Both the position numbers and the translations under genes were made by a program. From an uncultured bacterium (GTDB lineage: Bacteria; UBA8481): a stretch of 64,000 nt of DNA. This document shows positions 1 to 33,470 of this stretch, one piece after another. The notes under the pieces were generated by a model that was not told where the DNA came from, searched no databases, and saw only the letters and a program-made list of their open reading frames with translations. The stretch lies in NCBI GenBank assembly GCA_964499705.1, contig CAZCME010000014.1, positions 1 through 64,000 on the forward strand, given 5' to 3'. The number at the start of each line of letters is the position of its first letter. Position 1 is the stretch's first letter.

Positions 1-2209
1 GCCACTGGCCGTCGGTCTTCCGAAGTTCGATGCGCACCGTCGCGGAATAGTCGCGCGTCTCGTCGAAGCTGCCCGTCGTGGACTTCCTGGCCCACTGGAA
101 CGTGACGATCAGGAACTTGTCCGGCGTCACGATCTCGATCTGCTCGGAACTCCATCGGCAGAACGACGTCGTCGTCTTGTTGAACTGGTCGCGGATCGAG
201 TTCTCGAACTGCTGGTAATCCACGAAGCCCGGCTCCGGTGAGATGAAATCGCGGTCGATGATGGTAAGCAGTTTCGCGCGATCGTTCTGGAGATAGGCGT
301 CGCGGAGGGTATCGAGGAGCAATTTTATGCGCTGTACCTGCGTGAGATTGATGTAGCGGAGAATTTCCAGATCGCCGTCCATCTTGCGGATCACTCCCTC
401 CGCCGGGCCGGCGGCCGTGTTGAACTTGAAGAGGAATCGGTAGTCCGTGTTCTCCGCGAGCTTGAGGGTAAACGTGAAATCGCCCGTCGAGGCGTCGTAT
501 GTGAGAGGCAAGTAGGTGGCGCCGTTGTCGACCGAGATCGACGCGGCGGTGACGGCTTTTCCGTTCGAGACGCGGCCGGAGATCGTGAGCGTTCCGTCCG
601 GCGCTTTTTCACGATCGATCAACGTCATCCTCTCAAAGCTTGTCGAAGAGTACCCGTTGAGATTCGCGGAGACGATCTCGATCGCTCCGTCGGCCACCAC
701 GCGAGGCGGCGGCGCGAGCTGGACGGTGAAGGACGAGAGGAATCCGGCCGGCGGCGTCATCATGAAGTTCCCGGCTGCGTTCTTCGGAATGACGAGGAAG
801 CTATAGGATCTGGCGTCGCGAAGAAGCTCCGATCCATCCTGCGCGGTCATTTGGAAACGTGTCATCGGGAGATCCCGAGCGAGAATCGTGTTGTCCACGG
901 AAAACGGACTGCGGGAGAGATAGAGCGTGTAGGTCGCGGCGCCCGGATACTGCGGCCAGGTGAACGCCGGAGTCGCGGTGTTCGCGGTCATCGAAGCCGC
1001 AACGACGAAGGGCAGAGACGCAACGGGCGTCGTCGGAGCCGTGCCGCCCGGCCAATCGACGGCTGCGATGGCGGTCACGAAGACTCCCGCGGATACCGTC
1101 GATGTCGCGTCGGTCAACTGGATCTTGTCGGCGACGCCGCCGGTCATGCCCGCGGTGTAGAGCCCGCTGACGGGTTCGATCGAGCCGCCGGAGTTGTTCT
1201 CGGCGATCGAGAATCTGTGGCTTCCCGCTCTCGGCGTTCCGTTCTCACTGTGATAGACATTCCCGGCGCGACCGCCGCTCGCGCCGAACCGGATCGTTCC
1301 GCCGGTCGCGACGCGCACGAGCCCGTCCGCTCCGATCTCCGCGTCCGCGGGATTCTCGATCGTCAGGGCGCGCTTCTTCCTTATAAACATCCGCGAGAAC
1401 TTCAGGTTCGCGACGTCGGTGTAGTTTCCGGCGTCGAGCGTCATCATATTCGCGCCCGACGCGCTCACTTCCAATGCCGCCGCGGTCGCTTCCGCCTCGA
1501 ACGCGCTCTTCAACTGATCGAGAACTTCCTTCACCGCGGGCTGGGGTTCGCCCGGAGTCGCGCCCTGCAGAACGTTCAGATATTCGCCAGCCGTGACGTT
1601 CCTCTTCCATCCGCCGGGCCCGGACATTTCCACCTTGCCGTCGACGACGGTGATGACCAGCTTGCCGGATTTCCCTGCGGCCCGCGCGACGGAATCCACG
1701 ACGTCCTGATAGGACAGTTCAAACAGCGTGCCGCGAACTCCCGCGACGGCGACTGGCGTGCTGATCGAATAGTTTCCCGTGCGACCCGCAGGGCGATTGA
1801 ACGAGTTTTTCAGCGTGCCCGATGTGAGCGAAAGAGAAATATCGTCGCGAACGGTCTTGGTGGTGCGGAGGAACGAGCGCGCTTCGCTCTCGACCTGCCG
1901 GAGATCCTCCACCGTGACCGTGGTCTGCGCACCAAGCGAGGTCATGCCGACGTCACTGATCACGATGCGGCACGAGCTGTTCGCTCCGGTCCTGATCATG
2001 TCGCCCTTCTTCACCGACATCTTCGCAACGGCCGGAACCCAATCCTTCCCCGCGTTGACGCTCACCTTCACGTCACCGTTCAGCCCATCGAGATGCGCCT
2101 TGTGGACGAGAAGCTCGCGTTCCGCGTTAGGCGCCGCGCCCGCGGGCACCACGACCGTCATGCAGAGAGCGAGCAGGAGAATCCAGGATGTGAATCGCGC
2201 GACCGTCAT
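1..2209 (-). CDS. Secreted FecR-domain protein with Ig/FN3-like middle and NTF2-like distal domain (3' end off window)
   Basis: Not in ORF track because there is no stop in the window. Hand translation from ATG 2209 (ATGA overlap with the giant gene stop) is open to the edge: signal peptide [25 protein letters not shown], FecR-type motifs [12 protein letters not shown] and [15 protein letters not shown], distal [13 protein letters not shown]...[10 protein letters not shown]. Confidence 0.8.
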
Positions 2210-5200
2210 TGCTTCAGCTCCAGAACGGCTTCGTATCCCTCGGGCACGACGATCGAATTGAGCGCGCCGTCGGCAAGACCGGGGAAGCTCGCCGCGGGAT
2301 AGACTCCGATCCCGTAGTTCGCCGACTTCGCGGCGGCGGCGGCATCGGTCCACTGGATCGTGCCCGCGCCCGCCGTTGGAACGCTCAACGACGTAGCCGG
2401 CGGCGCGGGAACATAAGTGAAGGCTTCCCTCCGGAGTATCCGCCTGTAGCCGTGGCCCGGGACGAGCACGATATTCTTGAGTCCGAGCGTGCCCGCGGGC
2501 GTTGTCGCCGTGAGTTCCGTCCCGGCGGCGTTCGCTGTCACCGATGTCATGGGCGTGCCGTCGATCGAGAGCGATCCCGGATCCTGGAGGTTCGTGCCTG
2601 AGATGACGATCCTCGTTCCGCCGGAGATCGGTCCCATAGTCGGGCTGATGGCCGTGATCGTGGGGCTTCCCACGTAGGTGAAAGCATTAGCTGACGTGAC
2701 CGGACCGCCAGCGATCGTTACCACGACGTCCTTCGCGCCCTCTGTTCCAGGCGGCGTCGTCACAGTGATCGAGGCCGGCAGGGACGCCGTGATTCTCGCG
2801 GCCACGCCGCCGATCGAGACGGATGTCGCTCCGGCAAGGTTCGTCCCCGCGATCGTGATTCTGTCGCCGCCTGCCGTCGATCCCCGGTTCGGCGTCACGG
2901 TCGTCACGGTCGGCGATGTCGTGGTCGCGCCCGACGTTGACGCGCTCGTACCGGCACCGGTCACCGTGAACGATCCCTCGAATGTTCGTGCCGGCATGGT
3001 CACCGACGTCACCGCCGGCACCACCGGTAATTGGGTACGTGCTTCGGGAGCGAATGCGGCGACGGCGATGTAATCGAGTTTGTTCGAGACTGCCTCCGGC
3101 AGCGCAAGCGACGCCGCATAATTCCCGGCGGGAAGGTCGCTGGGGATAGCAAAGGTGACGGATGCCAGCGTGCTGACTTGACCTCGCACTCTCGCCGCGA
3201 CGCTTCCATTCGTGCCGCCGCTGATGACGATCTCAGCGCTCCCGGCGATATCCTTGTTTCTTATACGAAGCGCTACGGTGTTCCATGAGGTTTTGAGAAG
3301 ATCGAGCGCCTTCTCGAAATCATATCCCACGCCTTGAAGAGCTTCTCTGGCCAGCGCCCTATCCTGGTTTTGAATCGCAATAAGCATTTTTGCTTCGTTC
3401 TTGCCCCTTAGCCACGAGAACGGCAGGTCGAACGTGGCCTGGATCGCTCCGCCTTGCGCGACAGACACGGGGGCGATCGTCAGCTGATTGGAGCCCGTCG
3501 TGATGTTGCCTGTTCCGCCGGTCGACGTTGTCGCAGTCGGCGCCGCCGCCGCGACCGTGATCGTCGCCTCGGCCGGCTTGATTGTGATCGTGCCGGGCGG
3601 ATCGATAGGAGCGGCATCCATGGTCGTGGTCGCGGAGGTGATTCCGATTGAAGAGGAAGCGGCCGTGAAGATTTGATTGGAACCGGCTTGATCGATAGAG
3701 AGACCGAAGAAGGTCGCACGTCCGGCGACGGCCGCCATCGTCGCCGTGCCGCTGAGAGTTGCGCCCGACACGGTAAGGGAGATTGAAGAGGTGGACGCAG
3801 CGACCACAGTCCCATTCGCGTCGACCACAGCCACCACCGGCTGTCGCGTGAAGGGCTTACCGGGCTGGGCGCCTCCGGGCGGGGTCAGAAATACCAGTTT
3901 CGTGGCGGTCGTGGCGGCCGGGACGGATCCGGTAATCGGTGCGGCGGTCGCCGTTATGGAATGCGATCCTTCGCTGCTGATCGTGAGGCCTCCGAAGGTC
4001 GCCACTCCGGCGACCGCGCTCATCGACAGAATGCCGCGCAACTGCGGACTCGCGAGCGTAACCATACCGGTGTAGTCGCTCATCTTTGTGCCGCCCGCGT
4101 TCATAACCGTGGCGGTAATGGAGAACTCCGCGCCCGGCGCGACGTTACCGGTCGGTAGCGTGAGCGAGATGCTATTCTGGGCGCTCGCTGAGGTGGTGCC
4201 CGTCGCCGTGCTCGCTCTGCCCGTGACGGTGACCGATCCATCGGCGCCGATCGGGGACTCGCCGAAGAGAACTCGAGCCTTGTGGGCTCCGTTGATCGCG
4301 CCGGCGGGAACCGTCCACTCGAAGGTGACCCCGCCGATCATATTGGCGATCCCGAGACGCGGAGTGAGCGCCTTCTCATCCGGTCCGAGAATCTCGACCA
4401 TGAACTTCGTTTGGGCATCCGGGAGTTGCAAAATCTCGCCGAGATACGTGGCGAGATCGGCTGTCGAGGTGCTCGAGAGAGCGAACGTCACCTTTTCGCC
4501 CGGCTTCGCGCTCTCCTTGTCCGGCGTGAGCTTCGTGCCCGCGGGAGTGGCGGGGAGCTTCGTCGCGGCCGAAGCTCCGGATGCAATCAGAAACGCGTCG
4601 AGAGCGGCGAGGAAGTTGGAGCGACGCGTTCCGGTCTTGAGCCAGTTGCGGGGAGCCCCGATCATGGTCTTGAGGCTGCCGACTGATACCTTTGTCTTCG
4701 CGGCGTTGCCATCCCTCATTTGATCGCGAGCTTCGGCGAGCCGTAAGAGGATGGCCGAGAGGCGCTGATCATTCTCCCGCGCCGTGTTCGCGCTCATGTC
4801 GGAAGTCGGAATGGTTGTCTTGATTCCCTCGAGCGTCCTGAGAGCGCCGTTGTACGCGCGCGCCGCGGCGTCGTCGAGCGGATCGTACGTGAATCTCGGG
4901 TCGACTGTTGAAGTGGCGGCGGGAGTCGTGGCATCGTCATCCGTCACACTTGCCGTCAACGACGCATTCCTGATGTTCGGGGTCGAGAGCGTGATCGTGA
5001 CCGCTTCGTTCGCGGCATCGGCGTCCTGCACGCCCGTCACGGTCACGGTCTGCGGCATGGCGTAGTTGACAGGAGTGAATGTGAGCGTCGTGGGTGCGCT
5101 CGTGGCCGCCTCCGCGTCGGATGAGGAGATGGTCACGACCGCATTGGACAATGGATCGAAGGCAAGCTGGGCCGTAAAGGTCGCGGTAGCGCCCTCGGTG

Positions 5201-8200
5201 ATCGAGCGCGAGGCCGCATTCAAGATGATCGCCTGGACGTCGTCATCCGTCACGTTCGCCGTAACGGTCACGTTCGGCTCATTCGGGGACGAGAGCGTGA
5301 TCGTGACCGCCTCGTTGGAGGCGTCCGCGTCCTGCACGCCCGTCACGGTCACGGTCTGCGGGATATTCCAGCTCGTCGGGGTGAATGTGAGAGTCGTCGG
5401 AGAACCGGTCGCGGCGCCGGCGTCCGCGGTTATGATGGAAACTAATACGTTGGCGGTCGGTTGCACCTTGAAGTTGACGGTGAATGAACCTGTGCCGCCC
5501 TCAGCGACATTCACAGAGTTGGGGCTGACCACAATATTCGACGGCGCGCTTGTCGTGACCATCGCCTCCGCGGTCGTGAGCGTACCGGATTTCGCTAATA
5601 GCTTCATGCCGGAGTTCATCTCGTCGGTCTTCAGGTCGGTGAAGGTCGCTACGCCCTTCACGGCATTGACCGTAAGCGCTGTCGCAGGACCGAGATCCGC
5701 GGGCGAGTTTCTGTCGAACGGCTTGATCAGCGAGACTGTGATCGCGATATCGGATTCGACGACCTTGTTGTTCGCGTCCTGAACTTCCACGACCGGCGTG
5801 ACGGTGAAAGGCGAGCCCGCCGGCCCGGTATAACCTTGAGCCGTGAAGACGAGCTTCGTCGCGGGCCCGACCGCGGCCCCGGCCGTTGTCGGGTACGTCA
5901 TGGTCGCCAACTGATCCGTGCCCCAATACGCGGTGGCTGTGTAGGTCGCGGGGAGCGCGACACCGGAGGCCGCCTTGAAGGTGACTTTGCCACCATTAAC
6001 CCACGCTTCCAAATCGGCGGCTTTGTCATCAGGGGCTACGACGTGGACCGTGATGGATTGATCTCCGACAGCCGTGCCTACGATGCGCACTTTGAGGTTG
6101 GATCGAATAGCATTGGCAATGGCGGTTACGCCATCTGACCCACCAAGATGCGCAAAGTTTTGGGTCGCCAAAGCCTGGGCAAGCAATTCGGGGGGTGTCA
6201 CAGCGATGGCCTTTGCCATCCTCGCGAGCATCTCCGCCCCAACGCCGGCTCCTTCGAGAACGAACGTCGCCGCTTCACCATCGTCCGGCCCGCGGGTAAG
6301 CGTCATTACACTAGCGGAAGAGCCGCCGGTGGATGTTCCGCTCGCCGTCCCGGCCGTGCCATACGCGAATCCACGAGTGAGCGTGACGGTCTGCGCCGGG
6401 GAGGGGGAACCGGCGCTCACGCCGGACTGCGACTGCCGCGTCATTCTCGCCGTCGCTGCCGTCGCCGCATCTGCCACAATGGTTACGTTGGCCTCTGCCG
6501 ATGCATATCCAGGGAACGATGCGACCAGGGTATATTCGCCCGATTGGGTGATCTTGAGTTCGGTAAAAGCCGCGATGCCCGCAACAGCCGTAGCTGTTAA
6601 TAGGCCGCTCAGTCCAGTGCCCGACTTGAGCGACATCGTCACTACGCCGGTCGCAGTCGCATCTGTGTTTCCATCTGATTTCTGGAAGGTCACCTGCGGC
6701 TGAGTCGTAAATTCCACATTCGCCACTTCCACGATCGGCGACTGCGTGAATACCATTCGCCTACCGCCCGTCGTCACGACGAGATCCTTCGCGCCCGTCG
6801 TGCCCGCGGGCGTGGTCGCCGTGATCACGGTGCCAGCCGCGTTCACGCTGACCGAGGTCGCGGCCACGCCGTCGATCATCACCGAGGATGTCTGGCCGAG
6901 GTTCGTTCCGGTGATTGCGATGACCGTTCCGCCCGCCAGAGGTCCGGACGATGGAACCACGGATGTCACCGTCGGCGCCGGCGTCGAAGCGCCTGAAGTC
7001 GTAGACGCGCTCGACGTGGAGGTGCTCGCCGCCGCGACCGGCACCCCGCTCGCAGTTGCGGTCGGCTTTTCCCACCATAATTGGTAGCCCGGCCCCAACT
7101 CTTCAGGCGTGACGACGCATGAAATGCTTTTGCCCTCGTCCTCAGTCGTGGTCGTATACCTGTTTTCTTTGGCGGTTCCAATGGCAACTCCGTTCCGTGT
7201 CCACTGGTATACGAATTTCGTTACCGACGGATTCCAATCACCCGGAGCCACGCTCAGTTCATCTCCGACTTTCGGTGTGAGCGGATTGACCGAGGGGATC
7301 TTCGTGTTCACCGGAAGTGCAGCGTCGAGGATAGCGATGCTCACGCCTTCCGCCATTTCGCCATTCTCATTCGCGGAGAAAGCGAGCAGATGAGTGACGC
7401 CGGATGGGATGGCCGTGTTCTCTTCCACGCTCTTACCCGGATCCCATCCTCCCTCGATTCTCATGAGCGCTTCTCTTCCAGGCAACTTCGTCGAAGAACC
7501 GCTACCCCAATACACGAAGTAGTGAGTGATATCCGAGGATACGTTGGGGGTGCGCACCTTGACGTAACCTTTCAGTTCTCCTGCGTCCTTGTCGGAATCC
7601 TCGAACTCCACGGCCAACGGTTTATTGGCGGGCACTGCAGCCGCCTCCGCCGCCGCGACGACGATGTCCTGCTCGGCCACGGTGAGCGGACCGGAAGCAA
7701 ACCTCAGCTTATACGTGCCGGCCGTCCCGAGCGCGAGGTTGGTGAATTCCGCTTCTCCACTCGTGAGTGCCTGCGCGAGCACGCTTCGCGACGTGAAGAC
7801 TCCGCCGGTCGGGCCGGTTGCGATCGAGACCGTGACATCACCGGTCGGCGTGGTGACGGAGTTCCCGTACGCATCCTGAGCCGCTATCCGAACCGCGCTG
7901 GCAGAAGTGGCAAACGCCTCGCCCGCGTTCGCGGTTGACGGCATCTTTCTGACGACCAATTTCACCGCCGGGCCCGGCGTGACCGTAAATTTCGCCGTGG
8001 GTAGAGTAACGGCGCCGCCGTCGGCACCCTGAAACACGTTGCCATCGCGATCATTGATCCCGCAGTCTATCGACCACTCCCCAGCCGCCGTGACTTTCAC
8101 CCCGGAGAACACGGCAAGGCCGTTTGAGATACTCGCACGCACCGTCTGCGACAGGTCTCCCTTGGTTAACGTCGCAACCACGGTTCCGCCGTCAGCGCCG

Positions 8201-11200
8201 GTCACGCGTTGCCCCGCCGCATTCAAAGCTTCAGCCTCGAGCGCGAACACATCTCCGGCTGCGACACTCTTCGGAACCTTCACAAAAGCGAGTGTCGACG
8301 GCAGACCTGCAACGGCCGCCGCGACCGCGCGCGCCGCCACCGTGAAGTTCCCCAAGCCCATGTCGCCGAGGGAGTAGGAGTATTCGCCGGGGACAGCGTC
8401 GACCGGGACATTCCATGTCGTCGGGAGGATGATCCATACTCCGTCGCGGAGGATCTCCTCGGGGTTGAGCGTCGCGACCGTGACCTGCGCATTCGTCGCC
8501 TCGTTGTACCTTGTCACCTTGAATGTCCGGCCGGTCCGCTTGAAACCGGCCACCTGATACAGATTCTTAAACTGACTGCTCGATGAAGCGCCAAATCGTT
8601 TCTGCCCGCCCTGTTGGACGGGAGGCTGCCTCACGGGTTGCCAGTCGCCGTCCGGATTGAGGTCGGCGGCGATCTCCGGTTCGGTATGCGTCGCCGACCT
8701 GAACACGAGGTCGTCGTTGCCCTCGATTCGGAACTCGATCACGTACGCGCCCGGGAGATCGACCGTGAGATCGCCGAATGAACCGTCGGTTCCCGCCGGC
8801 ATGGTCACGGTCTTACTACCGGAAAGAACGGCGCCCGCCGGGCCTGTCGCGATCGAGGCCGTCAACGTGTTCGCCCCGGATCCCGCAGCATTCGCCTCGA
8901 TCACGTACACGGGCAGCTTGCCGTCCGCCTCGCCGCCGCCGGTCATGGTAATGCCATTGGAGCTCGCAGCGGCAGGCGCCGCCGCGACGGTGACCTGATT
9001 CGAGGTCGCGGGCGAGGGCGCTGCGAAGCCCGTATTCGGCTCCGCCCTCACGACGCAGGTGAGTGTCTGCCCAGCGTCCGCTATTACGGTCGTGTACGTT
9101 GAACGCGTCGCACCCGAGATCTCCGTGTTGCTGCGCTTCCACTGGTAACCTGCGACGTTTCCGTGCTCGACGTTAACCGCGCACGTGAGCATGTCGCCGA
9201 CCGTGACCGCCTTGGGCGTAACCGCTGGCGTGCTTATCGCCGCTAGCGGCATCGCCGTGAGCGTGATGGGGATTTCGAGGGAGGTGAGCCCATCGGAACT
9301 AAAAGTGAGCGTACCCGATCCGGTTCCGAGCAAGCTTGTGCTCGCATCAACGAGAAGCGTCGCCTGCCCGGCCCTCCAAGCAAGGACTGGAGGTGCAATC
9401 ACACTTAGAGAACCTGAAGTCGTCAAGCTCAAAGCCAACGTTCCCGCATTGGTGATCCCAGGTTCACCTGTGGCGGCCAGGGCCTTCACGGTGATGGAGG
9501 CTCTATAATTTCCAGGTCCGAAGTTCAGACTGGTCACCTCGCTGCCGATCTTCGTCGCGGTCGCCGCCGCAATAACCCTCGCCGTCGCCTGCGCCCTCAG
9601 GCGTACGCCCTCGGAAGTCGGCGCCGAGAGGAAGTTGAGTTGGACGTCTCCGGCCCGATCCAGGATCAGGTTTTTGAAGGTCGCGACGCCGTCCACGACA
9701 TCGGCCTCGAGCGTGCCCGTGAGAGTACCCTCACCGGTGCCCTTGCTGACGGTGATCTTGCCCGTGTAACCCTTATAAAGCCGGCTCGCTGCGTCCTGAA
9801 CCTGAACCCGGACCAGGAAGGGGCTCCCGGTGGTCGCGTTCGTAACCGCGATTTCTCCGAGCTTCGTGGCCTCCGGCCGCTCGGTGAGCGTGAGGGTAAT
9901 GGGAACTGCCGGATCGGACGTGCGCGTGATCGCGACGGGTTCGGAACGCAGAACCATCATATTCTCATTGAAGCCCTTGGCGAAGACGTTGTAGGAGGAC
10001 TGCGCGACGGTGGGAGCGGTGAGCGTTGCGGTGCGCGTAGTCAGGGTGGATGCTTGGTCGAGAGTTATCGTCTGTCCATTCGCATCCGTGTAAGCGACCG
10101 ACGCCGTGGCGTTCCGCGAGCCGCTCGGGAAGACGATGTTGAAAGTGAACGGATTGGCGAGGAACCGAGCAGCCACCGCGTCGGCGTCCGCGGTCGGACC
10201 GCCGCTGACCGTGAATATCGTCGTCGCTTTCGTGGTCGAACCCTGGAGAACCTTCACGGTATACGTGCCATCCGAGAGAGAGGTCGGGACGGTCCAGGTG
10301 TACGAACCTCCTGTCGCGGAGGCCGTGACGCGCCCGACTTCGGCGTCGTTTGCGTCGAGAAAGACGATCACAACGGCGTTCGCATCATCCGCCGCGCCGA
10401 TGAGCGCGTGCACAAGGAGCGAGTAGATATTGGGCGGGGCGCGGAGGAGCGGGACGCGAACAAGCCCCTGATCGGTCCGGACGCCACCATCCGTGCCGGC
10501 GGGCGGAATCAGCCAAGAGGTCGATGGCGAAGAGGAGGCCGAACTCTCCATGAGTTGCTGAAACAATGCCAAGAGAGCCTCGACCCTCCCGGCTTCGGTC
10601 TTTCCGAGGAACTCCGCCGAGGTCATGTAGCTTGTGACCTGCATTTTCTGAGCGTCGGACAAGCCAAGATACGCCGTCGAGTTGAGGACATCGCTCACGG
10701 TGGACGCCGCAGCGGTCGGAACCGCGATCGTGAAGGTCACCTGGCCGCCGCGCGCCTGCGAAGTGGGATTCACCGTGACCGTCCACGCCGCCGCGGCCGG
10801 AGTGGCGGAGCTTCCGGAGGTCGACGAGGCCGCCGCGGCCGTCGTCAGCGAGACGAGTCTGGAGATCATGTTGCTCTGCTGAAGCGCCGCGTAGAAGTCG
10901 TAGGTCGTTGCGGGGCTCAGGCCGGTGATCGTCACTGACTGGCTCTGGCCTGTCGTCGCTACCTTCTCGGGCGAGACACCCTGAGCTCCGGTGGCCGCGA
11001 TCACCGCCGCCGCCGTGGGCGCCGCGGATCCGCTCGCCACCGCAATAACGCGTACCTTGTCGGTGGTGCCGCTCGTCGTGAAGGAGACCGAAGCGCTCGT
11101 GGAGGTCGGCGTGCCCGAACCGACCGGCTGAGTCGTGAAGGTGAGCCGTGTAAAGGCCGGCGCGGTGCCCCTCATTGTGGATAGCGAATATTTGCCGGAG

Positions 11201-23200: not shown

Positions 23201-24840
23201 GCCCTTTTACCCGATGCCATGATCTTGGTCGCGCCCTGCAGTTCACCGGGCCCGCTCACCTTCGTCACGGTTACTTCGATTGGCGCGCTCGCCGGAACCT
23301 CGATTTCCCTCCCATTGGCGTCCATGAAACCGACTTCAGGAAAGCCCTTGGAAGAGATATGGATCCCTTTAATGCCATACGCCTGGAGTTGAGTAGCCGA
23401 CTTCGCCGCCGCGATGTTGAATTTGGAGCCGTACGCGTCGACGTTCTTGCCTCCGACGACGGTGCGCGCGCCGAAGTTGAAATCGTTCCCGGCGCTCGGG
23501 GCTTTGAGTCCGGTGAAGGTCGCCACGCCATTCTTCGCGTTCACCGTCGCCGCGCCGTTCGCGACGCCGGTGCCCGTGAGCGTAATGTTCTTCGTGCCCT
23601 GCCAGAGCCAGAGCGTGACCGCGCCGCTATAATCGGCGACCGTCTTGCCGGAGGCGTTCTGCGCAGTGACCGTGACCGAGAAGTCCTGCCCGGCCGTCAA
23701 ACTCGCCGGAGTCGTCGCCGAAACCGCAAGCTTCGTCGGCACCGGCTTGGCCGCCTCTGCGACCGTGAACGGTTTCGACGTCGCGGTGAACTTGTTTCCG
23801 AATTGGTCGGTGAACTTGAGCGTGTACGTTCCGGGCTTGTCGATCGTGAGATCCGAAAAACTGACCGTCGCACCTCGCGTAGGAGAACTCTGTTCGACCG
23901 TGCCGGTGAGTTTTCCATTGCCGGACGCGATCTCGACCTTGATCAATCCGACATAAGATGACACCAGATCGCCATTCTCGTCGACGGCATGGAGGACGGG
24001 CTGAACCGTGAAAGCCTTCCCCGCCACCGCGCCGGAAGGCTCCGTCTGAACGATAAGCTTATTCGCCCGCCCGGGCGGGACAATGTACGTAGCCTCCGCA
24101 TCCTTGAGCCCCGGAGAAGAGAACTTCAGCTTGTAGGTGCCGGCTTTAACGAAAGTTGTTTTATTGAGCCCAAGAGATCCGGTCGATGCCTTCGTCGTCA
24201 TCGGACCGCTCAAGGCTTTCGGACCGCTCACCATCGTGACCGTGACGTCACGCGGCGCGCTCGCCGGGATCTTGACTTCCTTTCCACTAGCGTCGAGGAA
24301 CGATAACTCGGTGTAGAGGTCGAGGCTTCCACCGCCGCCGAGACCAATTTTGAAGGTTTCCACCGAGAGCTGTTTCGGCTCGGACGCCGCGGGCGGGTTG
24401 AGCACCTTCGTCATCGCGTCCTCGACCGCTTTTGTCGGCGTATAGCTGAGCACGTTGATGAGCGTCGCGCCGTTGGTGGCGGTCTTGAGCGCATTTTCGA
24501 GCCCGCGCTTGCCGTAGTGCGTCCGTTTTCCGTTCTCGACTTCACTAATGTCGTCGAGCGCGACCTCGCCCTTGGTGGCGACGCCCTTCAGGTTCGTGTA
24601 GGTGACGACGAACTTCGTGCCGACCATCTCAAACGTGACACTGCCGGCCGTGATCGTGATCTTCTCCGCCGCCCCGATCACGCCGCCGTTGAGGATCTCG
24701 CTTGCGACGGCGAGCAAGTTCGCGGCGGGCGAAATGCCGAACGCCGCCGCGGGTGGAGCGAGCGACATGAGGTGAAGAGCTAGCATCAGAGATGCGACGC
24801 GTCGATGAAAGATCGGATTCATCCCGGATCCCGCGCTCAT
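2206..24840 (-). CDS. Giant (~7544 aa) secreted multi-Ig-repeat surface protein / adhesin
   Basis: Start moved to ATG 24840 (ATGA overlap with upstream stop), followed by a Sec signal (...[17 protein letters not shown]). Many repeats of QP.V.I.D..G...L.GT....GVATF..L.I.KAG.YTLKF, C..GTW...YQW.R Ig units, three helical TPEQ blocks, DUF4214-like [16 protein letters not shown] (~13040-13325), Calx-beta/cadherin-like pair (~4930-5540), IPT/TIG domains (~6770-6975, ~2415-2915). Confidence 0.85.
13697..13745. repeat. Palindromic element family B, copy 2 (in frame in giant gene)
   Basis: GAAACGGGGAGAGGCACG...GAGCCAGTCCCCATTTC; its reverse complement matches 18041-18092, including the loop AGCGAGGCG. 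Confidence 0.8.
18041..18092. repeat. Palindromic element family B, copy 1 (in frame in giant gene)
   Basis: GAAGTGGGGACTGGCTCC...GGTGCCTGTCCCCATTTC, arms 15/18 complementary. Confidence 0.8.
18104..18158 (+). repeat. Palindromic element family A (in frame in giant gene)
   Basis: ACCGACCGGATGGAG-GAAGTGTCGCGGGCGCCAAGGATGGCGCGAGAGCGACCGC; matches the reverse complement of 33941-34010 in panE. Confidence 0.85.
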
Positions 24841-27800
24841 CGGAAGATCACCAGCTTCTCCGTGATCCGGCGCTTCTCCGTCGGCGCGGCGTAATCGAGC
24901 ACATAGACGTAGACGCCGGTCGAGATCGACTGGCCCTGCTCGTTGCGGCAGTTCCAGGAGTACTCCGTTGGAAACGTGTTCAGGTCGATCGTCCGATCGA
25001 TCACGTTCCTGCCTCCGAGATCGAAGACGCGGAGCTTCAGCGTTCCTCCGGCGGTCGCGTTGTATTTGAAGACTACGTTGCCGGCGCCGTCGGGACCGGG
25101 ATTCGGCGTCACGAATGTCTGCGACGTCGATAGCGCGGGAATGGCGAGCGCTCGGACCTGGGCTTCCGTGCCCGCAAGAATCCGGAACGATCTCGACTGC
25201 GCGAGTCCGCCGGCGTTGAATTGATATGTAGGCGTCGTCAAGAGCGTCGTCTGCGCGCCGTTCGAGAGGTCGACGAGCAGCGCGACGAAACCGGGCGGGA
25301 GATTTCCGAGATCGGAGAATGTCAGCGTCACGATATTGTCCGTCGTCGTGGGCGTCACGGTGAAGTCCCAGCGCTGAGCCGTCGTGAACGGCGGCTTCAT
25401 CTCTTGAGCGAACGCGCCGCTCACGCCAAGACCGCCCGCGAACTGACCCGAAACGATCGGCGGATTCTCTACGGTCGATGCGGTGGAACTCGCTCCGAAG
25501 AGATTCGAGAATTCGTTTCCGCCGTCGCCGCGCACCGTCAGCTTCGCGGTCCAATCGCTCGTGGTGCCGACGGCCTGCGCCGACGCGAGCGGGGCGCTGG
25601 CTTCGCTGAAGTAGAAGTACGGCGAGAGACGGAGCGTCGCGGCGGTGTTCGCTTTCAGCCAGAATCCGTTCCATGGCGTCAGGATCGGATCGACGTTCGT
25701 CGCGCTCGGTCCGAACTGATACGCATTATCCTTGTACCAGAAGATCTTGTTCTGGATGATGCCGGCCGCCTCCGCCGCCGCGACCGTCATGACCGTTCCG
25801 CCGCTCGAGACGATCTGCGAGGCGTTCCATCGCGTCAGGTTCGCGAACGGCGTCCCAACCATGTTCCATCCTTCCTTGATCGCGATGTCGCGGGTGTCGG
25901 TCACGAGCGTCGCCCCGTTGACGGAGTAACGGACCGCGACCGCGTTGCGGATGTAGTAACCGTCGCCCGAAACGAACGACGTCGGGATTTCATAGCGGCG
26001 GTTGATGGCATGATCGGCGATGGACGGATTCCAGTGGAAGATGCTCGTGGGCGCAAGTCCCGAGAGCGCCTGAGAAACTGTGGCGTTTGTCGGGACGCGG
26101 TTGACGGCAATGAGACGCCAGAGCGTCGCGGGCTGATCGTATTCGAGCGTGTGGAATCCGATGTAGACCGGAGAAAGCGCGCCAACGACCGCCTTCACGA
26201 CGTAGACCCCCGCCACGTTGCCCGCCAGAAGGTTGAGGCGGCTGATTCCGCCCGCGTCCGTCGGAGTGTACGTGATCGACTCCCCTGTCGCGCCGGTCGG
26301 CTTCGCGACGACCGTGAAGGTGGGAACGAATCCCGCGAGCGCGGCGCCGAAATTGTCCGTCACAAGGATCTGCGCCGAGTCGACCGAAAACGTCGCCGGA
26401 GATAATCTGAACGAGGATGCCCCGGAAATTGTGACGGTGTTCGGCGTGGTCGAGATGTTGATCCGGAGCCGGAACGAATCGGACGTGCGCGTGTTGCCGA
26501 CGGTGTCGCGGGCGATGATCCGCCAGTACCACGTCTCGTTTGTCGCGAGCGTCCGAGTGCTGCTTGTGGAAGTTCCCATCGGTGAATCGACGAACGGATT
26601 CGTGAACGCGATGGAGGAGTCGATCTGGAGCCGGTACGAGTCGAAGCCCGCGCCCGTGTCCGACGCAGCGCTCCATGTGAACGTGATCGTCGTCGCCGAC
26701 GTTTCATGGCCATGCGCGGGAGCGGACGGCCCGAACCCGAACGGCGGGAACGAATCGACGAGCACCGTCGTCGACCGCGAGTCGCTCGCCAGAGCGCTGT
26801 CCCGGACGGTCACCCGGAGAACGTTCGCGCCGTCGGTCGCGGCGAGAGGAATGAAGTACGTGGAGTCCGACGTCGTATCGGTGAAGGCGCCTCCGGGGCC
26901 GGAAACCACCGACCAGACATACGTGAGCGAGTCGCCGTTCGTCGCGGTGTCGACGTCGAACGAACCTGTGATCCGGAGAAATGTGGAGTCGATCGGGCGG
27001 ATCGTGCTGTCGGAGATCGAGATCGTGCCGGCGGTCGGCGTGTCGTTCACGACGGTGAGCGTGATCGCGAGCAACTGCGTGATCGTGTCCTTATTGTCGG
27101 AGAGCCGCAGCGTCACGGTCTCGGTTCCGTTCGAGTCCGCGGTCGGCGAGATCCGGAGCGTTCGCGAATCGAGCATCGTCGCCATGAAGATTCCTCCGCC
27201 GCCGGTCACGCTCCAAAAGGCGATGATCGAGTCCGCCGGGCTTGAATCATTCGTGAACGGCGAAAGAGCGACCGTCCAGACCACGGTATCTTCCGGACGC
27301 GACTGCGCGGGGGCGGTGGGAAAAATGGTGGGCGTGTCGTTGGGTGTGATGTTGATCCGGAGCCGGAACGAATCGGATGTCGAGGAGTTGCCGACGGTGT
27401 CGCGGGCGACGATCCTCCAGTACCACGTCTCGCCCGCCGTAAGCGTCCGCGAACTGCTGGTCGACGTTCCCACCGCCGAGTCGATCTTCGGGTTGGCGAA
27501 GGACGTGGAGGAATCGATCTGGATCCGGTACGAGTCGAAGCCCGCTCCGGTGTCCGACGCGGCCGTCCACGTGAACGTGATCGTCGTCGCCGTCGTCTCG
27601 TGTCCGTGCGCGGGCGCGGACGGCGCGAATCCGAACGGCGGAAACGAGTCGACGAGGACGGTCGTCGAGCGGGAGTCGCTCAGGAGGGCGCTATCCCGAA
27701 CCGTCACTCGGAGGACGTTCGTTCCGTCGGTCGCGGCGAGCGGAATGAAATATGTGGAGTCCGACGTCGTGTCGGTGAAGGCGCCGCCCGGCCCGGAGAC

Positions 27801-29915
27801 GACCGACCAGAGGTAAGTGAACGTGTCGCCATTCGTGGCGATGTCGGTGTCGGTCGAACCGGTGATCCGGAGAAACGTGGAGTCGATCGGACGGATCGTG
27901 CTGTCGGAGATGGTGATAGTACCGGCGACGGGTGTGTCGTTCACGGGGGTGAGCGTGATCGCGAGGAACTGCGTGACCGTTTCACTGGTATCGGAAAGTC
28001 TCAGCGTCACGGTCTCGGTGCCGTTCGAGTCCGCCCTCGGCGCGATGCGGAGCGTGCGCGAATCATTCATCGAGACCGTCACGATGCTCCCGCCACCAGA
28101 AACGGTCCAGAAAGCGATGAGCGTGTCACCGGCGTCGGTGTCATTGGTGAAGGGCGTGAGCGCGATCGTCCAGACAACCGTATCCTCCACCCGCGACTGG
28201 GCGGGTACGGAGGGCGACGAGATGAAGGGCGTGTCGTTCACTGCAGCCAGTGTAATCGCAAGGGTATCGCTGGTCGTGTCCTTGTTGTCCGACAGGCGGA
28301 CCGTCACGGTCTCGGTGCCGTTCCGATCCGCGATCGGCGTGATCCGGAGCGTCTGCGAATCGTCCATCGAGACAGTCACGACCGTGCCGCCGCCCGTAAC
28401 GCTCCAGAAGAGAATCGGAACATCGAGGAAGTTCGTGTCGTTGCCGAAGGGCGTAAGAGTAACAGTCCATGCCGCGGTGTCCTCATTACGCGACTGCGGC
28501 GGAAGAGGAACGATTGTGGGCGCCAGGTTCCCGGTAAGAGCGATCCGGAAGTGCGTATCCGCCGCATCGAACGTCACCCAGGATGTCGCAACGCCAGCGG
28601 AACCGCCGATAGCGCGCGCCTGCCAGTGGTACTGGCCATTCGCCAGGCTGTCGGCGAGGATCGAGAGCGTCTCGCCTCCCGACGACGCCGAGGGGGCGCT
28701 CTGGAAGAATGTGATCGTGTCGATGGCAGGATTCGCCGGGCTCGTGAAGGCCGTTCCCGCCGCGCGCAGTTCAACCTGGATCCGGAACGTTTCGCTGCCC
28801 GTTCCGGAGGCGAAAATGTTGAAGCGGATCGAGTTCGTGTCCGTCACCTGGTCGTTGAGCGCGATCGGCGTCATATCGGGCTTCGTCTGCGCAAGCCCGG
28901 TCGGCGTATTCGGCGCGGCGGAATCGAGGTAGAACCGGGAGAAGCTGGTCGAGATTCCTCCGTGAAGACCATACAGGAAATTGCCGCTTCCGGGATACAC
29001 GAGGCCACCGCCGGCCTGGAAAGTGTTCGGTGCCGTATCCGAGATCAACGTCCAGTTGTTGCCGCTGATCGAGTAGCGGTACATGTCGCTGGAGTTGTCG
29101 CCGCGCGTCGCGTAAATGAAGTTGCCGGAGCCCGGATAGAGCAGCGACCCGCCGCCTTGCACGTTCACCGGCAGAGAGGTCATCGCCGACCATGTATTCG
29201 ACGAGATGATGTAGCGGTAAAAATCCGGGTTCAGACCTCCTCGCAGAGCGAAAATGGTGTCGCTGCCGGCTTGCGCGAGCGCCGCGCCGGCGTCGATGGT
29301 ACCCGGAGCATCAAGCATTGCCGTCCATGTATTCGTGGAGATGGTGTATTGATAGAAGTTCATCGTGCCAACGCCCGGCGTGGCGAAGATCGTGTCGTCA
29401 CCCGTCGTGACAAGCGCGCCGCCCCCCTGCACGACCTGCGGAATATCGAGCATCGCGGTCCAGGCGTCCGCCGAGATGACGTACCGAGTGAAGGCCTGCG
29501 ACAATCCTCCCGACAGGACGAAGATCGTATCGCTCCCGGCTAGTTCGAGCGTTCCGCCACCCGCCAGGGTCCCCGTCAGATCGGTCATCTGAGACCACGC
29601 GTCCTGCGAGATGATGTACCTGTAAAGCGTGGCGGCGTTGTCGCCGCGCATCGCGAAGATCGTATCCGTTCCGGCCTCGGTCATGAGCCTGCCTTCGTTC
29701 AACCCGCCGCCGATATTCAACGGCGTCGCGGCGCGCGTGTCCCAGTTGAACGCGGTGGCGGCTCGCGCGGGAGCGACGAGCGCGAAGAAGAGGATGAGGA
29801 AGGAACAATATTTAATTTGTAATTTGTAATTTGTAATTTGTAATTTTTCAGCTCGATCAGGAGCAAAATTAAATATTTCAAATTTCAAATTACACATTAT
29901 AAATCGTCTTTTCAT
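24837..29915 (-). CDS. 1692-aa secreted Kelch-like propeller + cadherin-like/PKD/FN3 repeat protein with C-terminal FlgD-Ig / T9SS-CTD-like domain
   Basis: Start ATG 29915 (TGATG overlap). About six repeats of DTIFA..G......Y.Y.IS...W..M; 298-aa tandem duplication; C-terminus TPNP...[11 protein letters not shown]...[20 protein letters not shown]...EKLVIFR. Confidence 0.8.
26454..28240. repeat. Intragenic tandem duplication, period 894 bp (298 aa)
   Basis: GATGTTGATCCGGAGCCGGAACGAATCGGA starts at 26454 and 27348, and the protein units are near-identical. Right boundary approximate. Confidence 0.85.
29808..29904. repeat. 97-bp AT-rich heptamer palindrome (family C) inside a signal-peptide coding region
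   Basis: (AATTTGT)x4 at 29814-29841, short GC spacer, degenerate inverted arm. Confidence 0.9.
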
Positions 29916-32167
29916 CAAAAGATCACCTTCAACCCGAGCAGGGTCGTCCACCGGTGATGATTATTCGCCGTGATCGCGAAGTCGTTGATCTCATAGTCGC
30001 CGCGCGCGGTCAGAGTGTTCTTGAACTCGGCGCGCTCGTTCGTGTACGAGAGATCGAGCGTGAACCGGTCCTTCGTCGAGTCCTGCGACTGGAGCGTCCC
30101 GCGCTTCAGATCCCGCAGATAATCGAACCGTCCTGTGAAGGCATCCTTCTCGTACGAGAGTGAACCTCCGAACGTCGAAAAGCGATCCTGTTGAACTCCG
30201 CCGTCGCGCGAGCGGTAATTGCCCTTCAGCTCGACCTTCAGAAAGTCATTGATCGATTTCGAGACCGTGTTATCCCACCGCAGCTCCTGGATCGTCTGCA
30301 GCTCGAACCTCAGCTTGTCGCGTTCCCGCTCGTCGTCCCACGTGAAGCTGGTCGTGTAGATGTCCCATAGCGTGTTCTTAACGTTGAATGAGGCCTTGAA
30401 GTTCTCGCGATTGTTGGACGGCGCCGTTCCGACGACCTTGATGTCGTCATACGTCCGGCGGAGAGAATAGTCGGTGGTGAAGACGGACTTATTGAGATAC
30501 GGGCTCTTCCACGTCGCGAACGGCTTGGAGACGAGATTCAGGCCCGATGTCAGAAGCACGTCCACGGAGGTGCGATTCGCGACGCGGTTCGATCGCGTAG
30601 CTTCTCCTCTCCATGTATAGTCGATCCACTTCACTTTTCCGGGCAAATTCGCGGTCACGCCCAGCTTCTCGCGATCCGAAGTTGCGCTGCCGTAGATAGT
30701 CCGGAAATTCTCGTCCACATACGTGTAGACGCCCTCCAGCGTCAGATCGTGGTATTTCTGCGTCAGCCGGAGGTCCAGGAGATCGCCGCGGTTGTACGTC
30801 GTGTCAGGCAACCGGATTTCCTTGTGGTACGACCGGTCGAGATCGAACTTCAGCTCGGTTGAGTGCTTCCACGGCGCTTTTGCGCTTCCGCTGATTCCGT
30901 AGATCTGATTGTCCACCTGAGTCCTGACGCCCGCGGCTACGGTCGGATCCTGGTCGCGCGCCGCGTCGGCCAGGAATCGGACCTTCACGATGTCCTTGAA
31001 GGCCGCTTCCCACGCGCCGCCCACCGAGTAGCGCGGCAGATCCCCGAGGCCGTTCGCCCGGAAATCCCGGCCGCCGATAACCAGCAGGTTGTGCTTCATC
31101 CCGCCGAATTCGTATTTCCCGTCGTAGGATGCGCCGGCAAGCGTCTGGTCGAAGACATACTTGTTCAAGGTCGCGCTCACGGTGCCGAACTTGAAGAGGT
31201 TGTTCGGATTGACGAGATACTCCAATTCGCCCCGCTGCAGGGACAGCGCGCGAATCTCCCTCGGTTCGTACTTCCCGATGGCGACGCCCTTGACTTCCGA
31301 ATTGTCCCAGCGGATCGGCTCGAGCTTCATCGTCGTCGTCTGCGTGAATCGGTTCGTCGTGAACTTGTTCTGCCCCGCCGCCGCAAGCGTCCCTTCCGGG
31401 ATATTGATGATCTCGTCCTCGAAATTGAGGTTCCACGAAAGATACTTTCGCCGCGGAACCGGCGGCCCGACGCCGCCCAGCAGCGCTTTCTCCTCATCCG
31501 ATAGTTCGACCTTTTCGCGCGGAGCCGCCGGCGCCGTCACGGGGAGTCGATCCCGCTCCCGGTCTAGAACGGCGTGGATAGCCTCAGCAAGTTCGACGAG
31601 AAGTTTCTCCTCGATCGCCTCGCGGTCGGTCATGCCAAGTTCGAGCGAATAGGTATCCGTGTAATAGTTCAGCTCCCGGATAAAATTCTTACGCTCCACA
31701 ATATCCCGGCCCGTTCCTTCGTCGAGCACGGCGAAGTCGACGCGGATCTGGACGAGTCGTTCGAGCGGTCTGCCGTTGGCGTCCGTCCGCCGATCGGTGA
31801 TCGTCAGCTCCCGGATCGTTCCGGAGAGCGAAAGCGCCGCGGTCGTCGAGAGCGTGAACCCGGTGTCCGAGAGAAGTGTCCGCTCGATCGCGCGCTTCAG
31901 GATTCCGACGACCGTCTTGCCCTGACCTGACCCGTCCGCAACTTCCGTAATACGGACGTTTGCGGCTGTCTGAAACTCGTCCACACGGAGCGCGATCGGA
32001 GCAGGCGCAGAAGCGGAAGCGGAAAGGGCGAGAGTCAGGCAGAGCAGGATCGGGAGATATTTAATTTGTAATTTGTAATTTGTAATTTGTAATTTTCCGG
32101 TTCGAGCAGTAGAAAAATTACAAATTAAACATTTCAAATTAGAAATTAAATATTGATTTTTCTTCAT
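29915..32167 (-). CDS. 750-aa outer-membrane protein: LptE-like N-terminal domain + large beta-barrel
   Basis: Start ATG 32167 (TGATG overlap). Signal ...LLCLTLALSASA; LSLSGTIREL...VQIRVDFAVLD...EAIEEKLLVELAEAI resembles the LptE fold; ~500 aa of amphipathic strands ending LGLKVIF. Confidence 0.65.
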   Translation of the reverse strand: MKKNQYLISNLKCLICNFSTARTGKLQITNYKLQIKYLPILLCLTLALSASASAPAPIALRVDEFQTAANVRITEVADGSGQGKTVVGILKRAIERTLLSDTGFTLSTTAALSLSGTIRELTITDRRTDANGRPLERLVQIRVDFAVLDEGTGRDIVERKNFIRELNYYTDTYSLELGMTDREAIEEKLLVELAEAIHAVLDRERDRLPVTAPAAPREKVELSDEEKALLGGVGPPVPRRKYLSWNLNFEDEIINIPEGTLAAAGQNKFTTNRFTQTTTMKLEPIRWDNSEVKGVAIGKYEPREIRALSLQRGELEYLVNPNNLFKFGTVSATLNKYVFDQTLAGASYDGKYEFGGMKHNLLVIGGRDFRANGLGDLPRYSVGGAWEAAFKDIVKVRFLADAARDQDPTVAAGVRTQVDNQIYGISGSAKAPWKHSTELKFDLDRSYHKEIRLPDTTYNRGDLLDLRLTQKYHDLTLEGVYTYVDENFRTIYGSATSDREKLGVTANLPGKVKWIDYTWRGEATRSNRVANRTSVDVLLTSGLNLVSKPFATWKSPYLNKSVFTTDYSLRRTYDDIKVVGTAPSNNRENFKASFNVKNTLWDIYTTSFTWDDERERDKLRFELQTIQELRWDNTVSKSINDFLKVELKGNYRSRDGGVQQDRFSTFGGSLSYEKDAFTGRFDYLRDLKRGTLQSQDSTKDRFTLDLSYTNERAEFKNTLTARGDYEINDFAITANNHHRWTTLLGLKVIF
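32057..32153. repeat. 97-bp AT-rich heptamer palindrome (family C) inside a signal-peptide coding region
   Basis: ATATTT(AATTTGT)x4...AATTAAATAT; same length and left arm as 29808-29904. Confidence 0.9.
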
Positions 32168-33048
32168 CAGAACTTCACCCCAAGGCTCACGGTATGCGTG
32201 AAGTCCAGTTCGCGATGCGCCGCGAGGCCGTACTCGAGCGCGATGTTGTTGTAGCGGACGACGCCGCCCGCGGTCCATTGTCGCGAGGCGTCCTGATAGC
32301 CGCCCATGATGGAGAGGAACTCGAACAGTTCATATTCCGCTCCGATCTGAAAGTCGCTCGAGCCGTCCTCGCGCCACGTGAGCCCGCCGCCAAGATGGAG
32401 AAGCGAGTACGGCGACCACTCGCCGCGAAGTTCGCCCGTAATCGGCAGAGCGTCCGCGTCTCCGCGATTGGTCGAGAGATTACGGAGGTTCACCGTGAAC
32501 AGGGCGCTCTTCCATGTGTAATCGGCGCCGAGATCGAGCCCGAAGCGCGAGCGCGACCGATCACGGACCGAAAATCCGACATAGTTGATCTGCGCGCCGT
32601 ATCCGAAGCGCGACGATACTCCTGATCGTCGCGGCGCGAAGGAGAGGCGCACGGCGTCCATGCGCGCGTCGAAGAGATTTCCGGTCAGCACTCCGTTGGC
32701 CGCCTCACGGATCCCTGCGACCCTCAGCTGGCTGAAAGAGAACCCGATATTCCCGTAACGCAGACGGTCCGACGTGATGTCGACGCTGCCGAGATCGAAG
32801 CCGTCGATATTGTCGAATGGTTTGGAGTAGGTCGTTCCGATCGCGTCTCCGGAGTTTTCTCGGATCCGTGACGGACCGCTGTACATGCGTGAAACGTTAT
32901 TCCGAGCGACAGCCTTCCCGGATGCGATCCAGCCGGCGGGCCCCAGGAGATCCGTAAACGCATCGAAGCCGCCGCCCTCCCCGGTGAGCGTCGAACCGGA
33001 AGCCAGTGTGGGAGATGCAATCATTAAGGTGAGAAGGATAGAGAGCAT
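32167..33048 (-). CDS. PorV/PorQ-like (FadL-type) outer-membrane beta-barrel
   Basis: Probable start ATG 33048 with signal MLSILLTLMIASPTLA; motifs FGLDLGADY, IGAEY, IMGGY, LEYGLAAHRELDFTHTVSLGVKF. Confidence 0.7.
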   Translation of the reverse strand: MLSILLTLMIASPTLASGSTLTGEGGGFDAFTDLLGPAGWIASGKAVARNNVSRMYSGPSRIRENSGDAIGTTYSKPFDNIDGFDLGSVDITSDRLRYGNIGFSFSQLRVAGIREAANGVLTGNLFDARMDAVRLSFAPRRSGVSSRFGYGAQINYVGFSVRDRSRSRFGLDLGADYTWKSALFTVNLRNLSTNRGDADALPITGELRGEWSPYSLLHLGGGLTWREDGSSDFQIGAEYELFEFLSIMGGYQDASRQWTAGGVVRYNNIALEYGLAAHRELDFTHTVSLGVKF

Positions 33049-33435: not shown

Positions 33436-33470
33436 GAGGTCCCTTTCACCCCGAAGGTGAAAGGGACCTC
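33436..33470. terminator. Perfect 15-bp hairpin between panE and the surface operon
   Basis: GAGGTCCCTTTCACC-CCGAA-GGTGAAAGGGACCTC; no clear U-tract, so terminator function is uncertain. Confidence 0.5.

Follow-up and report, generated by a model that had tools for sequence, protein, structure and literature searches.

A triplicated surface-protein cassette with an unnamed large outer-membrane barrel as a possible add-on to a reduced, apparently motor-less type IX-like secretion system

How might a bacterium bring a giant Sec-dependent protein to its surface when that protein carries no type IX sorting domain but is encoded together with one that does? This question is raised by a cassette of five genes at one end of the window analysed here, the 64,000 nucleotides of contig C14 (CAZCME010000014.1; C14:1-64000) from an uncultured bacterium of the lineage UBA8481 (GenBank assembly GCA_964499705.1; 4.67 Mb in 45 contigs, 96% complete). 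On the minus strand, five long open reading frames (ORFs) run from position 33048 down to position 2: gene A (32167..33048; 293 amino acids, aa), gene B (29915..32167; 750 aa), gene C (24837..29915; 1,692 aa), gene D (2206..24840; 7,544 aa) and gene E (2..2209; more than 736 aa). At 32169-32165 the pentamer TGATG contains both the stop of A and the start of B, the same pentamer is common to B and C (29917-29913), and ATGA is common to C and D (24840-24837) and to D and E (2209-2206). On the strength of these start/stop overlaps we regard the five genes as coupled. Because the window begins at the contig start, the 3' end of E is cut off; judged against an E paralogue, about 23 residues are missing. 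Two paralogous cassettes elsewhere in the genome repeat the gene set and its order, so the co-arrangement of the five genes exceeds chance. A preliminary description of the window, made from the DNA letters, had given this order and these overlaps and had called for a survey of synteny; ORFs, junctions and paralogues all bore it out.

We propose, with about an even chance of being right, that the cassette is an add-on to a reduced, apparently motor-less system resembling a type IX secretion system (T9SS) and encoded elsewhere in the genome, with A anchoring C, and with a platform of B, E and part of C exporting or tethering D. In this model the window would hold one of three paralogous surface-protein cassettes that plug into an apparently motor-less T9SS-like system, consisting of one divergent SprA-like protein and roughly one PorV/PorQ-type barrel for each cargo that bears a C-terminal sorting domain (CTD). 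C would be such a CTD cargo, exported by the shared SprA-like translocon, after which its own divergent barrel A would carry it or keep it permanently at the surface, as PorQ does with PorZ. B would be a self-plugged barrel of some 24-26 strands from an undescribed family. The conserved core of the cassette consists of B, the module of C that precedes its CTD and, usually, the C-terminal part of E, and these three may assemble into an outer-membrane platform. The giant D, which has a Sec signal and no CTD, would be a co-translated passenger that is exported and/or tethered by this platform. As to B itself, our preference is for an anchoring platform over either a translocon for CTD-less giants or an uptake channel.

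The machinery on which export of C would depend was sought with profile searches. The window has no match to SprA, Gld proteins or PorU, as the preliminary description had said. An SprA-like ORF of 2,168 aa is encoded on contig C5; against TIGR04189 (cut-off 200) it gives three separate partial matches of 97.8, 35 and 26.8 bits, and it has no Pfam match at E <=0.001. Matches in the genome to GldL, GldN and GldM (TIGR03517) numbered zero, and for GldK a fragment of 34 bits was all that came up (cut-off 350), results that are not proof of absence, since the genome is 96% complete and the control genomes included no T9SS-positive organism. The PorU profile (NF033707) gave 11 matches, all from profile position 937 onward, which is PorU's own CTD, and the best of them reached 27.6 bits against a cut-off of 420. 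GldK, GldL, GldN and PorU were searched in this genome only; GldM was searched in all five genomes of the phylum, where PF12081 (GldM_1st) gave nothing over its cut-off. Each of these five genomes has 14-25 PorV matches and one SprA-like ORF, and a Lindowbacteria genome (G005) has 22 PorV matches and an SprA-like ORF at 69.9 bits. Since the core genes were not found, there is no sign of a complete canonical T9SS elsewhere in this genome that would explain export, the finding by which the preliminary description would have been refuted. Its claim that the operon is a self-contained system did not hold: the SprA-like ORF lies on another contig and, of the 34 CTD cargo ORFs in the genome, 21 have a PorV paralogue after them. 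On both grounds, the CTD route most likely uses shared machinery, namely the SprA-like protein. With no PorU sortase, non-covalent retention of cargo on a barrel becomes plausible.

The genome-wide distribution of barrels and cargos follows a simple rule. Of the 25 matches that the PorV family profile found in the genome, 22 exceeded the cut-off, two scored 74-76 bits and one was A. TIGR04183 found 20 CTDs, and a hidden Markov model (HMM) that we built from 18 CTDs of the genome itself found 34 ORFs with a CTD at their very end. The canonical PorV-family genes lie 72-329 bp downstream of a CTD-ending ORF, in the same direction, in 21 of 24 cases. The remaining 13 of the 34 CTD ORFs have no downstream PorV gene; among these are C and its paralogues C' and C'', each of which instead has an A-type barrel encoded two genes upstream in its cassette. 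Distances between barrels correlate with distances between the CTDs of their cargos (Mantel r 0.79 for 20 canonical pairs, one partial pair on contig C2 being left out; 0.78 when the three A-C pairs are added), and in both sets none of 5,000 permutations was as high. This co-variation fits cognate pairs of barrel and CTD. The A-type barrels and the C-type CTDs are both more divergent than the average.

Gene A encodes a signal peptide and ends in a ...GVKF beta-signal. By the curated whole-protein threshold it is not a PorV/PorQ protein: against NCBIfam PorV_fam (NF033709; cut-off 90) it scored 37.8 bits over residues 232-293 only, and 23.6 bits in the genome scan. We therefore aligned a profile of the A family (A, its two paralogues and two database relatives, five sequences in all) with eight canonical PorV paralogues of the same genome, and obtained a nearly full-length match by hhalign (97.2% probability, E 2.9e-11, 239 columns). 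In view of this near-full-length homology to bona fide PorV-family paralogues, we classify A, by sequence comparison, as a divergent member of the PorV/PorQ superfamily, and the PorV-like character first suggested for it stands. The type is rare, with only three close homologues of A among 5.8 billion clusters; A' and A'' are 47% and 53% identical to A. The pairing rule, the homology and the lack of a sortase together make it most likely that A serves C as its own carrier or anchor, in the way that PorQ serves PorZ.

The product of gene C has a signal peptide, a Kelch-like propeller, repeats, a conserved module at about residues 1187-1600 and a CTD at about 1600-1692 (window 24840-25112). PKD, fn3 and Big_9 domains matched above their Pfam or NCBIfam cut-offs, and Kelch, cadherin-like and tandem-95 families below theirs. 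The CTD itself falls at the edge of TIGR04183 (Por_Secre_tail; cut-off 23), with 20.6 bits by hmmscan and 22.1 bits in the genome scan (23.4 when neighbours are counted), and its counterparts in C' and C'' pass at 31.4 and 26.8 bits. The CTD model derived from this genome gave 75.4 bits for the whole ORF, with one match on the last 90 residues. We read this domain as a true but divergent, type-A-like CTD, which upholds its original assignment. The pre-CTD module is common to C, C', C'' and two Lindowbacteria proteins with NHL propellers. Between copies the heads vary and the last approximately 500 residues align well; the head of C', for instance, reads as a beta-helix where that of C is Kelch-like. 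Precomputed Pfam annotation of close relatives of the module lists beta-helix families, one of these relatives being named a parallel beta-helix repeat protein in one source, and distant relatives are S8 peptidases. A structural model of the module (513 aa, from a four-sequence alignment) was too poor for a fold search, with a mean predicted local distance difference test score (pLDDT) of 48.9 and a predicted template-modelling score (pTM) of 0.30.

Comparison of the cassettes indicates which of their parts belong together. On contig C9 the order is A', B', C' and E', followed by a gene for a YhcG-type nuclease, a gene for a 330-aa protein and a CTD-less giant of 6,150 aa; this cassette stands directly after an ordinary cargo-PorV pair and repeats the TGATG overlap between B and C. 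The nuclease gene there (C9:124632-125795) belongs to the YhcG/DUF1016 PDDEXK type. The third cassette extends from the end of contig C35 to the end of contig C12, in the order A'', B'', C'', D'', F'' and E''. Outside this phylum, Lindowbacteria genome G005 (MFPR01000041.1) has a B homologue 41% identical to B, then an E-like gene (591 aa) and a C-like gene (933 aa), and genome G008 of the same phylum has a C-like gene (954 aa) directly upstream of a B homologue, followed by AbiE genes. The G005 C-like protein, an NHL-propeller protein, matches residues 1187-1640 of C with its C-terminal half (27% identity, E 8e-25) and has a different, short tail in place of the CTD; the G008 protein is 50% identical to it. 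Both end in a conserved two-cysteine tail of about 45 residues where the CTD would be, which may be a different sorting signal.

Across the five complete loci, B and the C-module are neighbours in all five, an E-like gene is present in four, A in three, and a giant inside the cassette in two, with another near a third. Both Lindowbacteria loci are without A and without a giant. Since A is absent from these two loci, which keep B and C, the conserved core appears from gene content to be B with C, not A with B. Further instances proved scarce. A scan of metagenomes for related loci with a seven-sequence B alignment returned only the Lindowbacteria contig already found, and a scan of a genome collection returned that contig together with a 5.3-kb contig from a metagenome-assembled genome; this second contig, where an N-terminal fragment of 199 aa represents the B homologue and unrelated ORFs come after it, was not usable. 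Equal contig sizes within two pairs of database entries (P0003/P0037, 14,754 bp; P0005/P0030, 6,781 bp) suggest further B-C and A-B linkage.

B is the most unusual component. It has no Pfam or NCBIfam match, and thus none to a TonB plug or a TonB-dependent receptor in Pfam. A word-indexed search of 5.8 billion clusters found seven relatives, and an exhaustive profile search of 1.84 billion proteins found 23 representatives, 16 of them with E <=1e-30; beyond the copies in the cassettes, the genome holds no further true relative. When 17 relatives were scanned, no Pfam family was found except for one sub-threshold LptE match. At E <=1, LptE (PF04390) matched 6 of 16 family members (best E 7.5e-4, all below the cut-off of 23 bits), and every other family matched a single member, with none recurring; the window's own B gave no LptE match. 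These recurring weak matches support a similar fold for the N-terminal domain of B, not membership of the LptE family. Comparison of the B profile with solved structures gave nothing significant (best E 0.59). The nearest clusters in the ESM Atlas, with scores of 0.85-0.86, are unnamed barrels of Omnitrophota, Rifleibacteriota and Elusimicrobiota and, in the same range, a cluster named 'TIGR03016 PEP-CTERM-associated OMP'; both are leads only.

In an AlphaFold2 model of B (mean pLDDT 65.5, pTM 0.46), an alpha/beta domain at about residues 55-205 is followed by a linker that is poorly modelled; about 24-26 strands then extend from residue 243 to the terminal ...LKVIF. With this model, Foldseek placed the 26-strand MtrB first (E 3.6e-7, template-modelling scores 0.36/0.41), followed by Occ porins, ushers and LptD. 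VIA-align likewise gave its longest alignment with MtrB (6r2q_B; Z 16.0, root-mean-square deviation (rmsd) 6.2, 451 residues aligned), a match that is tied within 1 Z with generic porins, including 18-strand Occ porins. Because of this tie, the modelled fold says 'very large barrel' and no more than that. The LptE-like domain and large barrel that the preliminary description had seen in B thus gain support from the model, the structural matches and the weak LptE matches in the family. We also considered whether B could be the housekeeping LptDE translocon for lipopolysaccharide (LPS), and rejected this since canonical LptD and LptE are encoded elsewhere in the genome.

Gene D encodes what appears to be a giant secreted fibre protein. 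It begins with a signal-peptide-like segment, and 31 copies of an Ig-like repeat of about 90 aa, detected with a self-derived HMM, account for 37% of its length; its Pfam domains are ALTTAQ repeats, Ig, DUF4214, Big_12 and three TIG. No CTD was found in it with TIGR04183 or with the CTD model of this genome, and neither half matched an RTX or autotransporter Pfam family at E <=0.01, so that the lack of such tails noted at the outset was confirmed. Its last approximately 53 residues (window 2209-2367) are 40% identical (E 3.7e-5) to the tail of F'', a protein of about 940 aa with its own signal peptide that precedes E'' on contig C12, and there is no other copy of this tail in the genome. We counted as giants all stop-to-stop frames of at least 5,000 aa across the genome and found 12. 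Eight end in a CTD and reach up to 11,547 aa (examples are C1:40740-70732, C22:44517-80224 and C8:31177-59637); four do not. One of the four, a 5,804-aa frame within C10:97150-117223 on the minus strand, overlaps a 1,177-aa frame that ends in a CTD, and the pair is probably a single cargo gene of about 7,000 aa that a frameshift or an assembly error has cut in two. There remain three, namely D, D'' (about 5,362 aa, with 39 TSP3 repeats) and the C9 giant (6,150 aa, with F5/8 type C domains), each of which lies in a cassette or within 3.5 kb of one. We rejected the reading of D'' and the next gene on C12 as one frameshifted gene, since the 940-aa product of the latter begins with a start and a signal peptide of its own.

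E reads as a protein with a cleavable-type signal peptide and no anti-sigma N-terminal domain that could be seen in its sequence. A FecR domain (PF04773) at residues 71-194 scored 33.5 bits, above the cut-off of 24; this domain is found in the window's E only and is absent from E', E'' and the Lindowbacteria homologue. What is conserved is the C-terminal part (379-736), which is 36-41% identical to E'' and E' and 37% identical (E 2e-67) to the 591-aa Lindowbacteria neighbour of B. It ends in an NTF2-like (DUF4440/SnoaL-like) region, with sub-threshold DUF4440 matches in two of four members.

Several observations weigh against the proposal of an add-on cassette with a B-centred platform. A and C are not adjacent, B standing between them, and the co-variation of A-type barrels with C-type CTDs could arise from co-duplication alone. 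The negative searches for Gld genes were run without a positive-control genome. The Lindowbacteria C-like proteins have no CTD and their loci have no A, yet B is kept, which argues that the job of B is independent of the CTD route. The model of B is only moderately confident and its structural matches are generic barrels; moreover, no true orthologue of B was found in the phylum's four other genomes, where a single-protein search gave none and the profile gave nothing above 40 bits. As for the passenger, the three CTD-less giants have no homology to one another, the tail of D is common to two proteins only, and on C9 the nuclease gene and the 330-aa ORF intervene between E' and the giant. Since the giants are unrelated and other genes may intervene, the giant may be a neighbour and not a client.

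Of the other explanations, the one that survives best casts B as an outer-membrane translocon of a new kind, similar to ushers or to LptDE, with its own N-terminal domain as the gate; it would thread CTD-less, Sec-exported giants such as D across the outer membrane by a route distinct from T9SS, with the A-anchored C and with E as surface and periplasmic accessories. We hold this to be unlikely, but it has the facts about D on its side, since D has a signal peptide and neither a CTD nor an RTX or autotransporter match, and B cassettes stand beside each of the three credible giants (5,000 aa or more) that have no CTD. The size of the B barrel is that of the MtrB, LptD and usher barrels, which hold a protein or a plug; the likeness to MtrB extends over 451 residues at Z 16.0, ushers match at Z 14.6 with the second-lowest rmsd (5.2-5.6 A) among the 50 matches listed, and the weak LptE-like matches to the N-terminal domain recur in 6 of 16 members. 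However, these structural matches are of a generic sort and small porins score level with them, in both Lindowbacteria loci B and C persist with no giant, and the giants are mutually unrelated, their sole common feature being the 53-aa tail in two proteins. Taken further, B could found a new class, a single-chain, LptDE-like, self-plugged translocon or anchor of about 26 strands for megadalton, CTD-less fibres with Sec signals, which seems to us doubtful; equally doubtful is the accompanying idea that its partners are a PorQ-held surface protein C and a periplasmic, NTF2-tailed E, the whole being grafted onto a motor-less T9SS-like system. Were this new class real, it would be, by our own reading, a secretion or display route not described for any phylum.

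A different possibility, to which we give less credence than to a translocon, is a complex for nutrient capture, like utilisomes or BtuB-BtuG, made up of B, C and E. In it, a propeller or beta-helix protein at the surface would bind its substrate or cut it, the barrel would serve as an uptake channel, and the giant would be an unrelated, co-transcribed adhesin. Such a complex would account for the variation of the C head (Kelch-like propeller, right-handed beta-helix, NHL propellers) next to a conserved module adjoining B, for the beta-helix families among close relatives of the module and the S8 peptidases among distant ones, and for the presence of SusC and BtuB complexes among the structural matches of the B barrel. 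It sits poorly with a barrel that has no TonB-plug or TonB-dependent receptor match, with the absence of transporter, regulator or catabolic genes linked to the cassette, and with a FecR domain that the window's E does not share with its three homologues.

The reading offered in the preliminary description, that A and B alone, as a T9SS-like and self-contained pair, would export and anchor both C and D, we now consider improbable. The absence of SprA, Gld and PorU from the window, and of a canonical motor or sortase from the genome, had spoken for it. An SprA-like gene nevertheless occurs on C5, and each of the phylum's five genomes has one, as does Lindowbacteria genome G005; neither of the Lindowbacteria loci with B and C has an A-type barrel; and 21 other CTD cargos have a PorV gene beside them in a genome with no other true B relative. 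That the genes are merely packed together and form no functional unit, as the want of a true B orthologue in the four related genomes might suggest, was already disfavoured and is very improbable in the face of four consecutive start/stop overlaps, a cassette triplicated in the same order, and B-C linkage across two candidate phyla.

Returning to the proposal of an add-on cassette, its components have recognisable counterparts in known systems. In the Porphyromonas gingivalis T9SS the CTD of PorZ is uncleaved and PorQ anchors PorZ, and the same source cites type-B CTD proteins as anchored on PorP-like proteins (PMC10947112). T9SS is placed in Bacteroidota and the FCB superphylum by a review (PMC11205867). 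The cassette resembles the PorQ-PorZ and PorV-PorU pairs of the P. gingivalis attachment complex in combining a PorV/PorQ-type barrel (here A) with a CTD-bearing surface propeller (here the Kelch-like C). It differs in that no PorU, PorZ orthologue or Gld motor or ring genes were found in our searches, in that A is far below the family cut-off, and in that a second, unrelated barrel separates A from its putative partner C.

Type-B CTD proteins and PorP/SprF-like barrels also form cognate pairs, such as SprB-SprF of Flavobacterium johnsoniae and PG1035-PorP of P. gingivalis, with cargo and partner co-transcribed. The arrangement of a cargo gene with its own dedicated barrel partner is shared, 21 of the 24 PorV genes here following it with one barrel per cargo; unlike in those pairs, the barrels here are of PorV/PorQ and not of PorP/SprF type, and it is TIGR04183, the type-A model, that the CTDs match. 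For B, the plug-and-barrel LptD-LptE and the MtrB sheath of MtrCAB offer a barrel of similar, roughly 26-strand size and, in the former, an LptE-like alpha/beta domain. In B, however, both parts are fused in one chain, neither LptD (PF04453) nor LptE is matched above threshold, the genome has its own LptD and LptE elsewhere, and the context is one of surface proteins, not of LPS or cytochromes. Chaperone-usher and TpsB systems likewise place a dedicated, gated outer-membrane barrel beside a large Sec-dependent surface fibre, and ushers match B at Z 14.6; here no usher, chaperone, POTRA or TPS domain was detected, and the likeness is that of generic barrels only.

The cassette is thus a new variant of the cargo-plus-dedicated-barrel arrangement, and it includes a barrel family without a name. 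A full-text literature search found no paper joining Hydrogenedent* with T9SS or 'type IX secretion'. T9SS-like gene sets with no recognisable motor raise the questions of how CTD export is energised and how cargo is retained without a sortase. The unnamed barrel family is tightly linked to a conserved C-module and stands beside the only credible CTD-less giants of the genome. If B does move or hold these giants, this would explain how megadalton Sec-dependent proteins arrive at the surface in these uncultured phyla.

The starts of B and C carry a further peculiarity. Just after their start codons, in a genome of 62% G+C, lie AT-rich elements, palindromic arrays in which the heptamer AAATTAC faces its complement, and these are translated as an extension of about 35 residues before the hydrophobic signal core. 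The first copy (32057..32153, minus strand) occupies the first approximately 35 codons of B ahead of that core and folds as RNA at -27.1 kcal/mol (z -9.6). The second (29805..29907, minus strand), within the first codons of C, folds at -24.0 kcal/mol (z -5.2), and for both hairpins none of 200 shuffles was as good. The motif occurs nine times in the window against zero expected. B', C' and E' on C9 likewise start with this element, as does a metagenomic homologue of B (P0006); outside the window, copies lie on C3 (about 115.6 kb), C6 (about 152.5 kb) and C9 (about 118.0, 122.9 and 123.3 kb). Gene callers have passed over these AT-rich starts, such that the database versions of A and B begin 60 and 61 residues late.

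On its upstream side the cassette is bounded by a 526-bp spacer with a terminator-like hairpin (33434..33454, minus strand; found by consensus scan), which follows the neighbouring panE-like gene and marks the 5' boundary. Within the cassette, no convincing promoter was found and terminator-like sites were fewer than in shuffled sequences, both scans being uninformative for this organism. Beyond the spacer come unrelated housekeeping genes: the panE-like gene (ApbA/PanE match), a methyltransferase gene, NifU-type and ars-type genes, gltX and accA. A gene for a DDE transposase (PF01609; 44389-46179, minus strand) lies between gltX and a HAMP/adenylate-cyclase gene. On the same strand, positions 40938-44525 encode a 1,195-aa protein of unusual architecture, with HHH_3 (ComEA-like) repeats, a HAMP domain, a class III cyclase domain and a C-terminal GYF_2 domain.

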